Sequence record: OZ346189.1
DNA: 64,000 bases
DNA from: a phage
Reading direction: 5' to 3' (one strand)
In this document: positions 13,265 to 61,555 of the stretch, one piece after another
Layout of the letters: every line of letters begins with the position of its first letter
Numbering within the stretch: position 1 is the first letter of the stretch
Position numbers and translations under genes: made by a program
Notes under the pieces: generated by a model
What the model was told of the DNA's origin: nothing
What the model saw: only the letters and a program-made list of their open reading frames with translations
Databases searched by the model: none

Positions 13265-13354
13265 ATAAAGTGTTGCAATAGCCTAAAAACCTGCTATATT
13301 AAAACTCAAGGGGGCAAGACGTTTGCCCCCACACAAAACAAAGAGGAAAACATC

Positions 13355-57274: not shown

Positions 57275-57829
57275 ATGAAATACTTTGTAACAAGCGACAC
57301 ACACTTTCTCCACCAGCGGGTCATGGAGTTTGATTCATGTCAAAAACACAGATCTCAGTATGATCACAATCTTGACAGTATGAATGCGGGAATCATCACC
57401 AAGTGGAACTCTGTTGTGTCACCTGCAGACACTGTGTTCCACTTGGGAGATATTGCATGCACTAATGATAAGAATATCAACAAATTGCTCCCAGATATTC
57501 TAAATATGTTGAACGGACATATTATTCTTGTTCGTGGCAACCATGACACAAGGACGACTGTCAAAATTATGAAAGAGTTCGGTCATGAGGTTGTAGATTA
57601 TTACGAGCTTCGCCACAACAAGAATTTGATCTGTATGAGCCATTACCAGTTTGCAAAGTGGAACAGAAAGCCTCACGGATCAGTCCAACTGTTCGGTCAT
57701 GCTCACGGAACCACACAACAGTTGTTTGGCAGGCAGCTTGATGTCGGTTGGGATGTGTGGGGGAGACTCTTACCATTAGAAGAGGCATACCGTATTGCAA
57801 TGAGTTTTGATATTGACAGCAGGGAGTAA
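57275..57829 (+). CDS. calcineurin-like metallophosphoesterase
   Basis: motifs SDTHF, GDIA, GNHD. Confidence 0.65.
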   Translation: MKYFVTSDTHFLHQRVMEFDSCQKHRSQYDHNLDSMNAGIITKWNSVVSPADTVFHLGDIACTNDKNINKLLPDILNMLNGHIILVRGNHDTRTTVKIMKEFGHEVVDYYELRHNKNLICMSHYQFAKWNRKPHGSVQLFGHAHGTTQQLFGRQLDVGWDVWGRLLPLEEAYRIAMSFDIDSRE

Positions 57830-57876
57830 TCCCTGCTATTTTAAAGAAAATTGCCACACAAGGAGAATCAGGAGAT

Positions 57877-58227
57877 ATGAAAGATGGGGATAAGCTGCTA
57901 TATCTTAAAGTCCCCCTTGAAATACTATCTATGTCAAAAGTTTTGAATGACACAACTGGGGAGGTTGTTGTTCTTGACTTGTATGACAAGATCGTATACT
58001 GCTACCTGCACAACTGGTATAAGCTTGGAGGAAATTCACGCTTCACACCAAGCACAAGGAAAATTGCAGCAGATGTTGGGATAAAGAAAACAAAAGCAGC
58101 AGCGTGCGTTAAAACTTTAGAATGTGCAGGAGTGGTTGAAACATCCACACAAGGGAGAGGTAAAAGATGCACATTTTCCAAAGTTTTGCCACCAGAAGAA
58201 GTTATTCGGATGTCAACAACTGGTTAG
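57877..58227 (+). CDS. putative HTH DNA-binding protein
   Basis: helix-turn-helix-like segment PSTRKIAADVGIKKTKAAACVKTLECAGVV; GGAGAA RBS; directly upstream of palindromic repeats. Confidence 0.4.
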   Translation: MKDGDKLLYLKVPLEILSMSKVLNDTTGEVVVLDLYDKIVYCYLHNWYKLGGNSRFTPSTRKIAADVGIKKTKAAACVKTLECAGVVETSTQGRGKRCTFSKVLPPEEVIRMSTTG

Positions 58228-58297
58228 ACCAGTAAAAACTTAAATATCTGTACTATAAGGATTCGTATGTTTTATGTTCGCCATGGAACGGATACTA

Positions 58298-58366
58298 TTA
58301 ACTGTCCGTGATACGGACACATCTGCCCGTAATACGGACACTAACTGTCCGTGATACGGACACATA
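58298..58366. promoter_or_regulatory. two identical palindromic sites TAACTGTCCGTGATACGGACACAT plus a related half-site, followed by an AT-rich tract
   Basis: perfect inverted repeat TGTCCG-N5-CGGACA at 58303..58319 and 58349..58365; CCGTAATACGG between. Confidence 0.55.
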
Positions 58367-58866
58367 AAGAATATAACTAAAATAACTAAATAATAAAAAA
58401 TAAAAGATCTAGTACTTATGGTACTAAGTACATATACTTAACTTATGTAGAATATACTAGATCCTAAGTACCATGTTTTAAATTTATTACTTACTATGGG
58501 CAGTGTCGGCCCTTCATTGGCACTCGCCTACGAGGGGCGAGATGCCGGGCCTCCTTGGTGCACACAATAACAGAAGTTCATACATGCAGGTCTGTTAACA
58601 TGTGTGGGAGCGAAGCGATAGCGCAGGCCAAAGGCCGAGCACTGATGTGGACCACCGACGAAAGCTTGCCAGCGCCGTAAGGAGTCGGTTGAGAGTCTCC
58701 CGCACGAGCTTGGATGAAGTTTATGTGTGGAAACTGACAAGAAGGCCCCTAAATCGCTCCACAGCTATATAAACTATACCAGGTAATGCAATCGCACCAG
58801 TTTGATAGAAAAGCTCGTTACAAAGCGATACAGTGAGTTTTTCTATAACTTGAAGAGGAGGCAGCT

Positions 58867-59445
58867 ATGGGTTCACGCAAAGATGACCGTGAAAAGATTG
58901 CAAAACGTTATCAGAATGAAGAACAGATGGAGAAAACTTTCAAGTGGAAGCCAGGTTTCCAGCGTAATCATTCTAACGCTCGTGATCGTAAGCATCCGGA
59001 TAAGTGGTTAACACCGCCAAATGATGGCATGCAGGTTGGGGATGAGAAGGAGCTGTCACCTGGAAAAGATGGCAACTACATTCGCACTAAGGAAGCAGGT
59101 CCAAAGGATGACAGCTATCTTGTAGATAAGGTTCTTGACGGTGTTGATGTAGGTGTTGACACTGTACGAAACCTTTTTCTTGGTTGGTATCGCACAGGGT
59201 TTTTCGACATCAAGGCTATTCGTCGTGTTTGTGATATTAAAAAGTCTGCCTACGATGATGATTCCCTACATCGCACTCTGAGACAATACTCAGAGAGGTA
59301 CGGTCATCCAGTTATCACTCTTGACGATATTAACGAAGTTATGTATCATGTAGAGGTTGTTGCAGGTAGGTTCGGTGATGCATATCTCGGTATTCTTTCT
59401 GCAAAGGATGAGGTAATGTTAAATAAGATTTACTATGAACGCTGA
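58867..59445 (+). CDS. hypothetical protein
   Basis: ORF with GAGGAGG RBS. Confidence 0.5.
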   Translation: MGSRKDDREKIAKRYQNEEQMEKTFKWKPGFQRNHSNARDRKHPDKWLTPPNDGMQVGDEKELSPGKDGNYIRTKEAGPKDDSYLVDKVLDGVDVGVDTVRNLFLGWYRTGFFDIKAIRRVCDIKKSAYDDDSLHRTLRQYSERYGHPVITLDDINEVMYHVEVVAGRFGDAYLGILSAKDEVMLNKIYYER

Positions 59446-59963: not shown

Positions 59964-60250
59964 GGTTGTTTTCGTGTATCATGATGAATATCCAATTTAA
60001 AGATGAATTTGATGGCTTTATCTCCGGATGCTTTGAAACAGGGTTCGGAGAAGGCTGAGTTCCCCTTAGAGGGCTTGATAGTGCACCACACTTAAAATGG
60101 TAGGGGCAGCCAGCACATGACGATGTGACCCCAGCCAACCTGTAATAAGGTCGAGCCAAAGTGCGGTAATGGGCTCTGGTAACCCACTTGTTGGGTCTTG
60201 CTGGTCCAGGACGCTGGACAAGTCGCAGGGAATACCACCCTGCGGCGAAC

Positions 60251-60279
60251 TTGACAATCAGTATTTGCTATGATAAAAT
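60251..60279 (+). promoter_or_regulatory. sigma70-like promoter (TTGACA-17-TAAAAT)
   Basis: hexamers upstream of ORF 60308. Confidence 0.45.
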
Positions 60280-60307: not shown

Positions 60308-60646
60308 ATGGCGGATACAACTAAAAAGCGTCGCCGTAGAGGCAGACCTCTGAAAGAGGAGTCCAACGCCATTCAGCTAGAGAAGAACATCCTTGATATG
60401 AAGGAATCTTTTATAGCGATGGTTCCAGAAGCTCACAAAGTTTTAAGAGAGCTGATGTTGGACCCGAAAACCAAACAAAATATTCGTCAAAGCATTGCAG
60501 AGTATGTTCTTGATAAGGCAGACCGAATGCAGGAAGAATATGATGAGATGTTTGGTGAAGAGGAAGAGGTGGTAGTGGAAGAGGCTGAAAAACCAGCACC
60601 TTTTATGCCATTTACTACAGAAATACAGCCTGTTAGCAATAGCTAA
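60308..60646 (+). CDS. hypothetical protein with basic N-terminus and acidic C-terminus
   Basis: ATG at 60308 after GGAGGAAAC RBS (track ORF 60188..60646); KKRRRRGRP. Confidence 0.45.
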   Translation: MADTTKKRRRRGRPLKEESNAIQLEKNILDMKESFIAMVPEAHKVLRELMLDPKTKQNIRQSIAEYVLDKADRMQEEYDEMFGEEEEVVVEEAEKPAPFMPFTTEIQPVSNS

Positions 60647-60742: not shown

Positions 60743-60817
60743 GCCCTGTTAGCTTAGTGGATAAAGCAGCGGCCTTCTAAGCCGTTGACACTGGTTCGAG
60801 TCCAGTACGGGGTGCCA
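60743..60817 (+). tRNA. tRNA-Arg (anticodon TCT)
   Basis: hand-folded cloverleaf: acceptor GCCCTGT/ACGGGGT, anticodon stem GCGGC/GCCGT with loop CTTCTAA, T-arm ACTGG-TTCGAGT-CCAGT, encoded CCA. Confidence 0.65.
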
Positions 60818-60821
60818 AATT

Positions 60822-60900
60822 GGGGAGTTATCCCGTAGAGGTAGCGGTGTAGACTGTAAATCTATTGTCATTGCGACTCGGGTGGTTCGACTCCACCACT
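60822..60900 (+). tRNA. tRNA-Tyr (anticodon GTA)
   Basis: acceptor GGGGAGT/ACTCCCC, anticodon loop CTGTAAA, long variable arm, T-arm GGTGG-TTCGACT-CCACC, CCA. Confidence 0.65.
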
Positions 60901-61022
60901 CCCCACCAAATTTATATTTTTAGATGCATAAATAATACAGATAATGGCATTGATATTTATCGTCGTTTATACTAGTCACTAACTGCTCGAAAATCAGTGT
61001 CATTATCAGTATAATTTATAAA

Positions 61023-61113
61023 GGAGGGTAGGGAGCAATGGTGCTCAAGCGGTCTTGAAAACCGTCCCGTTGAGGATGACTCGATGATGGTTCGATTCCA
61101 TTACTCTCCGCCA
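61023..61113 (+). tRNA. tRNA-Ser (anticodon TGA)
   Basis: class II fold: 3-bp D stem, anticodon loop CTTGAAA, long variable arm, T-loop TTCGATT, CCA; acceptor has one G-U pair. Confidence 0.55.
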
Positions 61114-61210
61114 CATTGTTGACCTTGTAATTAAGCGAAAGCCGGAAGCAGAACCGGATTATCAAATGTTACAGTCGTCATCGCCGACTAGCAACATGGT
61201 CAACATACTG

Positions 61211-61308
61211 AGCTAGGTAAGCCCTTTGGCAAGGGCGAGGATTTTTAATCCTGAAAATAGACGAGGTAGTCGTTGAATACATAGGTGGTTCGATTCCATC
61301 ACCTAGCA
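61211..61308 (+). tRNA. atypical tRNA-like sequence (anticodon loop reads TTTTTAA, possibly Lys-TTT) with an approximately 30-nt insertion in the variable region
   Basis: acceptor GCTAGGT/ACCTAGC, D-arm GCCC/GGGC and T-arm GGTGG-TTCGATT-CCATC are recognisable; anticodon stem has only 4 bp; no encoded CCA. Confidence 0.3.
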
Positions 61309-61315
61309 CCTTTTT

Positions 61316-61391
61316 GCTGATGTAGCACAATCGGTAGTGCAATTGATTTGTAATCAATAGGTTGTAGGTTCAAGTCCTGCCATCAGCACCA
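61316..61391 (+). tRNA. tRNA-Thr (anticodon TGT)
   Basis: acceptor GCTGATG/CATCAGC, anticodon stem ATTGA/TCAAT with loop TTTGTAA, T-loop TTCAAGT, CCA. Confidence 0.65.
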
Positions 61392-61392
61392 A

Positions 61393-61467
61393 GGCCCTGT
61401 AGCTGGAAGGTTCAAGCAAGCGACTCATAATCGCCAGACGGTGGTTCAATTCCACCCAGGGCCACCA
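61393..61467 (+). tRNA. tRNA-Met or tRNA-Ile2 (anticodon CAT)
   Basis: acceptor GGCCCTG/CAGGGCC, anticodon loop CTCATAA, T-arm GGTGG-TTCAATT-CCACC, CCA. Confidence 0.6.
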
Positions 61468-61478
61468 AATAGTAAATA

Positions 61479-61555
61479 CTCCGCGTAGCTCAGCTTGGTA
61501 GAGCGCCTGATTTGGGATCAGGAGGTCGAGTGTTCGAATCACTCCGTGGAGACCA
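61479..61555 (+). tRNA. tRNA-Pro (anticodon TGG)
   Basis: acceptor CTCCGCG/CGTGGAG, D-arm GCTC-AGCTTGGTA-GAGC, anticodon stem CCTGA/TCAGG with loop TTTGGGA, T-arm GAGTG-TTCGAAT-CACTC, CCA. Confidence 0.7.

Follow-up and report, generated by a model that had tools for sequence, protein, structure and literature searches.

Lambdoid nut sites consist of boxA and a boxB hairpin bound by N, and phage HK022 carries put RNAs. In ribosomal RNA (rrn) operons, the sequence that defines boxC is UCUGUGUGGG; it belongs to the 5' strand of the long leader-trailer helix flanking 16S rRNA and is 18-19 nucleotides (nt) away from boxA (PMC10250234); a consensus for boxA is likewise available (PMC2724277). Here, a GC-rich block at positions 58500-58760 of OZ346189.1, a 64,000-nt stretch of phage DNA (hereafter the window, whose presented strand is the + strand), was compared with its homologues and with these systems. 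The block harbors an element that matches no Rfam family, paper or annotation that we found, displays features resembling those of rrn leaders and nut sites, and is probably a functional structured RNA of some kind. If it is an RNA, it would add an undescribed family of structured RNAs to a genus of therapeutic and typing coliphages that includes rV5, CarlMeissner (bas48) of the BASEL collection and their relatives, and whose gene regulation is essentially unknown.

Conserved pairing and composition of the block

Homologues of the block were found in ~120 Vequintavirus genomes, in one divergent metagenomic phage and in circular E. coli plasmids of ~13 kb, which are called satellites below for their satellite-like gene content. 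When phage and satellite sequences were compared with a covariance model of 58588-58717, 95.4% of the cells were paired and ten pairs carried double changes. The first-pass annotation had suggested an unclassified structured RNA and had named covariation across homologues as a way to check it. Such covariation was found, with a score of 0.197 against 0.088 for shuffles (none of 500 reaching it) and 0.017-0.036 for all slid registers; these values come from an alignment that was fitted to the covariance model and contains few independent lineages, which limits the weight that they lend to a structural reading. Taken together, the conserved pairing and its compensatory changes provide good but not conclusive evidence for a folded molecule.

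The core of the predicted fold is a closing helix, P1, of ~20 bp and rich in G·U pairs, formed on the + strand by 58590-58610, which includes CAUGUGUGGG at 58599-58608, and 58697-58715 (CUCCCGCACGAGCUUGGAU). It encloses an irregular hairpin, a conserved single strand and a second hairpin, He. The P1 pair 58591/58714 occurs as U-A, A-U and G-C, other pairs alternate between G·U and Watson-Crick, and in eight lineages the duplex is calculated at -12 to -18.6 kcal/mol, compared with -8 to -10 for shuffled partners. He (58654-58689, + strand) has a 6-bp stem (58654-58659/58684-58689) that is 100% paired in 18 distinct sequences, and satellites differ at both partners in three of its six pairs (A-U to G-C, C-G to U-A and A-U to C-G). 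Its 25-nt loop, GAAAGCUUGCCAGCGCCGNAAGGAG (58660-58684), is identical between phages and type I satellites, the sole variable site being the N of a GNRA-type GUAA/GGAA turn, which is U or G. The internal irregular hairpin (58615-58648 within 58611-58653, from RNAalifold) includes GGCC-AAA-GGCC and is 98.6% paired, with exchanges between U-A and U·G and between G·U and G-C. The conserved joining strand AUGUGGACC lies at 58645-58653, and AAUGUGGA is retained in both satellite types. In the three type II satellites, He is replaced by the hairpin GUCCGGAU...AUCCGGAC with another loop and both P1 strands are kept, their duplex being calculated at -12 to -16 kcal/mol against about -9 to -10 with shuffled partners. 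Because the helix is kept around two different interiors, P1 is independently supported.

The polarity of the pairing points to the + strand. Six of the 18 P1 pairs are G·U on this strand; in DNA they would become G·T mismatches, and on the - strand A would face C at the same places. Where only one partner of a pair has been substituted, the outcome is mostly a + strand G·U pair, as in satellite L036, where CUCCC has become AUUCC opposite GGGG. The loops on the + strand include GNRA types (GUAA/GGAA and GAAA) and, in satellites, two of C(UUCG)G; UUCG loops are an RNA signature. The consensus fold reaches -38.9 kcal/mol on the + strand versus -33.3 on the - strand. The G·U pairs, loops and fold asymmetry therefore favour an RNA copied in the + sense over + strand single-stranded DNA.

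Folding energy contributes little to this picture. The block as a whole has a folding z-score of -1.7 on the + strand and -2.7 on the - strand, its sub-domains range from -0.3 to -2.3, and energies this close to those of shuffled sequence are a point against a structured RNA. With z-scores so unremarkable, the structural claim rests on comparison rather than on energy, so that the description of the block as structure-prone is weak when judged by energy and backed by the compensatory changes in homologues. Three alternative pairings were rejected. The minimum-free-energy hairpin 58561-58574/58591-58606 loses its 5' arm by deletion in rV5 and Murica, and the partner with which 58591 covaries is 58714 rather than 58574; the RNAalifold alternative 58664-58670/58687-58696 is broken by satellite changes that preserve He; and a long-range pairing of GGGCCU (58547-58552) with AGGCCC (58743-58748) is unsupported, its 3' motif being kept in satellites that have no 5' domain.

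The left edge of the element is sharp (~58498-58505), with homology starting at 58505 in the divergent phage and at 58502 in a satellite; the paired core stops at 58716 and conserved motifs extend to ~58850. The 5' hairpin domain (58498-58560, + strand; folding z-score -2.26) comprises H1 (58508-58512/58547-58551) and H2 (58519-58529/58535-58546), the latter being 100% paired in 11 distinct sequences, with two of its 11 pairs changed from G-C to U-A in satellite L010. A candidate helix closing this domain (58494-58497/58555-58558) is 82% paired and differs in register between lineages. The + strand linker between the 5' domain and P1 (58561-58589) is the most variable stretch of the alignments (18 of 30 columns), and 18 nt of it (58563-58580) are deleted in rV5 and Murica. 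On the 3' side, also on the + strand, RNAalifold pairs a small hairpin with a GAAA loop (58724-58739), the motif GCCCCUAAAU (58745-58754) is conserved and also kept downstream of the element in satellites, and an inverted repeat forms an A/U-rich hairpin of 12 bp with an 18-nt loop (58805-58846) just 5' of the ribosome-binding site of the next open reading frame (ORF), ORF 58867. With one variable column among eight phages, 58800-58859 is the most conserved intergenic part.

The compositional contrast noted in the first-pass annotation, ~260 bp of GC-rich DNA in AT-rich surroundings, is borne out: at a GC content of 0.563, 58500-58760 ranks first among all 261-nt windows across the 64 kb (mean 0.428, standard deviation 0.035), and the flanks have 0.20 (58366-58497) and 0.39 (58761-58866). 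Its failure to recognise tRNA, group I or RNase P motifs also agrees with the searches. ARAGORN detected no tRNA or transfer-messenger RNA in the block, and the only matches to Rfam 15 at gathering thresholds in the whole window were tRNAs at 60743-61552. A permissive Rfam search of 58200-58900 (E<=10) returned chance-level matches only, outside the block or touching just its first ~70 nt (for instance, rli43, which scored 22.5 bits where the threshold is 100), and a scan of the satellite versions gave nothing relevant. The covariation and the lack of an Rfam family thus support the suggestion of an unclassified structured RNA, and none of its proposed classes (small RNA, riboswitch, ribozyme) gained evidence.

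Genomic setting and distribution in phages and satellites

The block lies in an untranslated gap of 640 nt between two + strand genes. The upstream gene (57877-58227) encodes a winged-helix DNA-binding protein of 116 amino acids (aa), which falls slightly under the cut-off for Pfam DUF6945/HTH_36, matches PHROG 12838 with an E value of 5e-80, and is labelled as a transcriptional regulator or a replication initiation protein in GenBank. It is preceded by a sigma-70-like promoter (57813-57842) and, farther 5', by genes for an RNA ligase, a polynucleotide kinase and a phosphoesterase. A repeat search located three copies of the 17-bp palindrome TGTCCGTGATACGGACA at 58299-58365, spaced by 21-22 bp; a fourth copy is present in seven of eight aligned phages. 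These repeats are presumed binding sites of the upstream protein, as operators or iterons. They are followed by an AT-rich spacer (58366-58497) with nested inverted repeats and two GATC sites, which is near-invariant within the genus. The downstream ORF (58867-59445, + strand) encodes a 192-aa protein of unknown function (PHROG 12226, no Pfam match), and its homologues, identified by tblastn in a phage collection, come from 120 records, every one of Vequintavirus type. Small ORFs and then a cluster of seven tRNA genes follow farther 3'. No sigma-70 consensus promoter and no intrinsic terminator were found in a search of 57842-59321. As nothing of the kind was found in between and the flanking genes are co-oriented, the block should be transcribed in the + direction from the promoter at 57813, within the message of the regulator gene.

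In phage sequence records, 58200-58900 matched 119 entries at 88-100% identity, all of them Vequintavirus, with phage 'nomine' as the best match; judged by this similarity, the source of the window is a Vequintavirus, that is, an rV5-like E. coli myovirus. Eighteen 'Campylobacter phage' records (MG0656xx, host C. jejuni, unannotated) are 96-98% identical to this Vequintavirus region and are probably mislabelled or contaminant coliphages. The divergent metagenomic phage (L012/L022, a contig of 137 kb) retains the block and the downstream genes at 81-84% identity. Upstream of them, it carries another regulator gene and other repeats (GATACATATTTGCATCAGAT-type), and the 143-aa product of that gene has a helix-turn-helix-like sequence pattern which, judged by eye, resembles that of the window protein. 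The covariance model detected no homologue in other Vequintavirinae (Mydovirus, Seunavirus) or in the distant unclassified coliphage Antha. Pattern scans of viral, genome and metagenome collections yielded one divergent phage and two satellite contigs, the remaining matches being further rV5-like phage contigs or chance matches in GC-rich genomes.

When E. coli genomes and plasmids were queried with the block, partial matches, each in two blocks with 82-87% identity, were recovered on circular 'plasmids' of 13.2-13.7 kb, and there was no match on an E. coli chromosome, so that a host origin of the GC-rich block was rejected. A query with the plasmid copy detected such a plasmid in seven of 5,426 complete E. 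coli genomes and never placed the element on a chromosome. One plasmid record is a 39.6-kb trimer, and two metagenomic contigs of 13.9 and 15.5 kb fall into the same group; the set used here consists of L010 (NZ_CP020521.1), L011, L016, L020, L028-L030 and L035-L037. Among the products of these plasmids are an HK97-type major capsid protein, a Dit-like tail protein, a neck/tail-completion protein, helix-turn-helix proteins and a 706-aa tape measure protein that is ~25% identical to those of Vequintavirinae. In addition, a 303-aa Rep-like protein weakly matches replication initiation PHROG families, including an O-like one. No terminase gene was annotated or recognised in L010. By this gene content, the plasmids look like undescribed satellite-like elements of rV5-type myoviruses. 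A literature search returned nothing on rV5 non-coding RNAs, on Vequintavirus satellites or on these plasmids.

The GC-rich block is the only DNA similarity seen between L010 and either the window or the phage collection, apart from marginal matches (47 nt at E 0.005 in the window and 119 nt at 70% identity in one phage record); some phage records also hold a second and a third place matching L010. No protein-level similarity was found between L010 and the window, and neither ORF 58867 nor a homologue of it was found in the satellites. In the satellites, the element contains three to five different hairpins separated by (U)GUGUGGG (UGUGUGGG), the number of modules varies, and the phage version has fewer. 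L010 carries three operator-like ATATCAA..TTGATAT repeats and, separately, CGGTAAATATTTCC iterons; the iterons, which would mark a putative origin, lie ~450 nt from the element, and the operator set with a promoter-like site faces it. The window, the divergent phage and the satellites thus each have their own set of upstream repeats, unrelated to the other two, directly 5' of the same element, and between the window and the divergent phage the regulator gene differs along with the repeats. This pattern suggests that the winged-helix gene and the palindromic repeats form a swappable cassette. The satellite copies sit upstream of the promoters of unrelated genes: every satellite carries, 3' of the element, a pair of near-consensus sigma-70 promoters (TTGACA-17-TAAGAT, then TTGACA-17-TAAAAT; 2061-2164 in L028). 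Between the second promoter and the main operon, no more than ~50 nt from that promoter, comes a terminator-like hairpin, an arrangement that resembles a leader or attenuator. As the sole sequence shared between these phages and the plasmids, the element offers a concrete handle on whether virulent rV5-like phages have satellites and on how such satellites plug into a helper.

Candidate functions of the element

The reading that we put forward, tentatively, is a cis-acting leader RNA of the nut-site or rrn-leader type, serving antitermination and/or processing. It draws on the boxC-like sequence in P1. CAUGUGUGGG agrees with boxC at eight of ten positions, and its last 8 nt are an exact copy of the core UGUGUGGG, so that in the window, as in rrn operons, the boxC core forms the 5' strand of a long helix. 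The satellites carry the exact 10-mer UCUGUGUGGG. For comparison, boxC read directly from the E. coli rrnH leader is aatcTGTGTGGGcac, and satellite L030 agrees with the rrn leader in 15 of 16 nt, a score reached by none of 300 shuffles. BoxA core words, CUCUUUA and CGCUCUUU, adjoin the boxC words in satellites. The leader reading also fits because the cassette-like swapping of upstream repeats recalls lambdoid immunity regions, because the authors of the rV5 genome paper found no T4-type late-transcription proteins encoded, and, for the satellites, because a terminator-like hairpin precedes the main operon.

In such a mechanism, transcription would start at the promoter at 57813 or at a regulated promoter in the AT-rich spacer, and the He loop together with the boxC helix would provide a landing site for a factor, either of the host Nus type or encoded by the phage. 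Once loaded, the factor could keep RNA polymerase elongating through the 640-nt untranslated leader, the downstream early genes and the tRNA cluster, and the leader-trailer-like P1 might also direct processing of the RNase III type. The satellite-like plasmids may carry copies or expanded arrays of the module, which would place their own operon under the same factor. If the leader does render polymerase processive, it would offer a testable route to temporal control in rV5-like phages.

Several observations weigh against a leader of this kind. No consensus promoter was found immediately 5' of the phage element, and the satellite sigma-70 promoters stand 3' of it, so that a cis effect there would need a further promoter upstream. 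The single-stranded boxA expected beside boxC is missing from the window, with CTCTTT absent from the 650 nt before the core and the 420 nt after it (boxA being UGCUCUUUA in rrn operons and CGCUCUUA in lambda), and in satellites CUCUUUA is an arm of a hairpin. The best boxA candidate, GCUCGUUACAAA (58813-58824), has three mismatches in an ungapped comparison, which is chance level (the whole window has 111 boxA-like matches against 79 expected), and it lies 3' of the element, partly in the stem of the 58805-58846 hairpin. As the phage element gave no alignment above chance with the rrn leader, 16S rRNA or spacer, the rrn link rests on the 8-mer in the phage and on the satellites. A likeness of the 25-nt loop to the 530 loop of 16S rRNA was dropped, the alignment not exceeding chance, and CTAAAT and TGGTAAAAT showed no pattern as shared phage promoters.

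A more ambitious form of the leader proposal, to which we assign a low probability, is that the hairpins within boxC-type helices are interchangeable recognition modules of an RNA-based helper-satellite interface. An rV5-like phage would load the factor onto its early transcript through the He module; type I satellites, with the 25-nt loop of the phage, and type II satellites, with another, would each be suited to particular helpers; and the module arrays would switch on, or compete for, the machinery of those helpers. If true, this would be the first satellite-helper coupling through a shared structured RNA.

Alternatively, the element might yield a stable RNA that acts in trans, or a protein decoy or sponge, an option that we consider rather improbable. 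Here the ~85-nt interior (58611-58696) would be freed by cleavage of P1, which resembles a processing helix, and the invariant 25-nt loop on its covarying stem would bind a putative host or phage protein that the multi-module satellite versions compete for or sense. The expansion to three to five hairpin modules split by UGUGUGGG in satellites is in keeping with this, as is the position of the satellite element, which is not the leader of the promoters downstream. However, no promoter or terminator was found that would mark off a discrete phage RNA, the modules do not repeat a single binding site, and type II satellites have no 25-nt loop. A sponge of the CsrA type was rejected, since there are ~5 GGA in 140 nt against ~3 expected by our own count, and these are not located in loops.

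It is also unlikely that the element is a cis-acting DNA site, either an origin-linked structure for single-strand priming or primosome assembly, or a pac region that the helper terminase must recognise in satellites in order to package them. The satellite P4 and its helper P2 share the stretch cos. As with P4/P2 cos and with ssi signals (RSF1010 ssiA/ssiB and G4-type), the block is short, hairpin-forming, situated beside repeats and AT-rich DNA, and essentially the sole similarity between satellite and helper. In the phage, the divergent phage and the satellites alike, it abuts repeats and an AT-rich stretch with GATC sites, and the replication-initiation PHROG matches of the upstream protein, and weakly of the satellite 303-aa protein, point the same way. 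The lack of a recognisable terminase gene in L010 would suit a pac region, and Vequintaviruses use a pac site for headful packaging (PMC13211470); the replication origin was not located in the rV5 paper. Moreover, TGTGTGGG occurs nine times in the window against 2.3 expected, a count reached by none of 100 shuffles (e.g., at 13328, 18591, 57754 and 58601), and 10-11 times per 13.7-kb satellite; in L010, eight of ten copies are in non-coding DNA, on both strands. The over-representation in satellite non-coding DNA would fit a DNA-binding site and is a further point against the leader RNA. At 13328 and 18591, the complement of TGTGTGGG sits on the + strand between a GC hairpin and a ribosome-binding site.

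However, the compensatory changes preserve pairing and not sequence, which a protein-binding site in double-stranded DNA would not need, and the six G·U pairs of P1 would be G·T mismatches in single-stranded DNA or A·C mismatches on the other strand. Unlike the cos and ssi signals, the element has a G·U-rich helix, GNRA and UUCG loops and a strand asymmetry, all of which fit RNA better. The link to an origin is further loosened by L010, in which the putative iterons are ~450 nt away and it is the operator set with a promoter-like site that faces the element, by the Seunavirus L032, in which a small winged-helix gene and the adjoining AT-rich stretch are kept and the element is absent, and by a Mydovirus phage, which is likewise without it.

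A riboswitch- or thermosensor-like leader that controls translation of ORF 58867 is very unlikely. The long structured untranslated region directly 5' of this ORF, its several CUCC words resembling anti-Shine-Dalgarno sequences, and the near-invariant hairpin beside the ribosome-binding site would be expected of such a leader, with CCUCC-type stretches (58550-58554 and 58697-58701) pairing with the ribosome-binding site at 58854-58861. However, these CUCC words are already used in P1 and H1, no Rfam riboswitch family matches, and the satellites keep the element without ORF 58867 or a homologue; the reading is disfavoured because the satellite element lies upstream of the promoters of unrelated genes, which stand between it and the next gene.

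Small proteins are hardly credible as the function of the block, even though its sense ORFs 58503-58598 (31 aa) and 58602-58772 (56 aa) are intact in all ten Vequintavirus sequences compared, with three indels (18, 3 and 3 nt) that are all multiples of three, and are annotated as hypothetical proteins in some GenBank records (rV5 and BASEL-collection phages), because their variable sites show no third-position excess (4/3/2 and 7/12/7 at codon positions 1/2/3), the former is frameshifted and the latter truncated in the divergent phage, both start with GTG, and the stem changes in satellites would alter peptide residues and yet leave the loop identical. The first-pass annotation had recognised only an antisense ORF, which it called implausible; this ORF (58528-58740, - strand, 70 aa, TTG start) does exist and is interrupted by stop codons in most homologues, and three sense ORFs had been overlooked, the third being 58555-58680. 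Neither ORF 58602-58772 nor the antisense ORF has a Pfam or PHROG match. From the codon-position pattern, the frames broken in the divergent phage and the antisense stops, the block is judged to be non-coding, and several GenBank records have probably called 'hypothetical proteins' here where there are no genes.

Farther downstream, other features were observed. A second GC-rich stretch (59995-60262; GC up to 0.52, folding z-score -2.5, no Rfam match) has no convincing ORF, being overlapped by ORFs of 30-71 aa on both strands, and may be another structured RNA; the strong promoter of ORF 60308-60646 (60251-60279) lies at its end. The 112-aa product of this ORF (PHROG 3330, function unknown) begins with MADTTKKRRRRGRPLKE; its N-terminus is arginine-rich or AT-hook-like and its tail acidic, as would be expected of a nucleic-acid-binding regulator. 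In the tRNA region, ARAGORN called a 99-nt tRNA at 61212-61310 with the four-base anticodon 'atcc' and an undetermined amino acid, for which the Rfam score is weak (35.5 bits). Relatives have it annotated as tRNA-OTHER or tRNA-Lys, and it may hold an intron or be an unusual tRNA.

Comparison with described leader and phage RNAs

ToxI consists of tandem 36-nt repeats of one unit. In phiTE, another member of the Vequintavirinae, pseudo-ToxI has been described, a non-coding RNA that mimics a cellular or plasmid RNA and whose modules have been gained and lost (PMC3475682). The element would likewise be a non-coding RNA of an rV5-related phage with gain and loss of modules; however, its modules are unlike hairpins separated by a short shared word, and no toxin partner is known.

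The E. coli rrn leader, with boxB, boxA, boxC and the 16S leader-trailer helix, differs in several respects. In the window, a consensus boxA and a boxB placed as in rrn operons are both missing, the boxA-like word lies ~200 nt 3' of boxC, the satellite spacing is ~8 nt, the enclosed RNA of ~85 nt is not 16S rRNA, and beyond the 8-mer there is no similarity above chance. What is shared is a boxC core that forms the 5' strand of a long, wobble-rich helix around a structured RNA, together with the exact 10-nt boxC and the boxA-core words beside it in satellites. In addition, an untranslated tRNA cluster lies downstream of the element, just as rRNA and tRNA lie downstream of rrn leaders.

Compared with nut sites and put RNAs, the element is far larger and multi-branched, no N-like protein has been identified, and antitermination is a proposal made here. 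In the phage there is no consensus promoter immediately 5' of it, and its host is a virulent myovirus, not a lambdoid phage. However, like nut and put, it would be a structured RNA in an early leader, with a hairpin that presents a conserved loop on a covarying stem, and, as in lambdoid immunity regions, sets of repeats, in the phages together with a regulator gene, have been swapped as cassettes in front of it.

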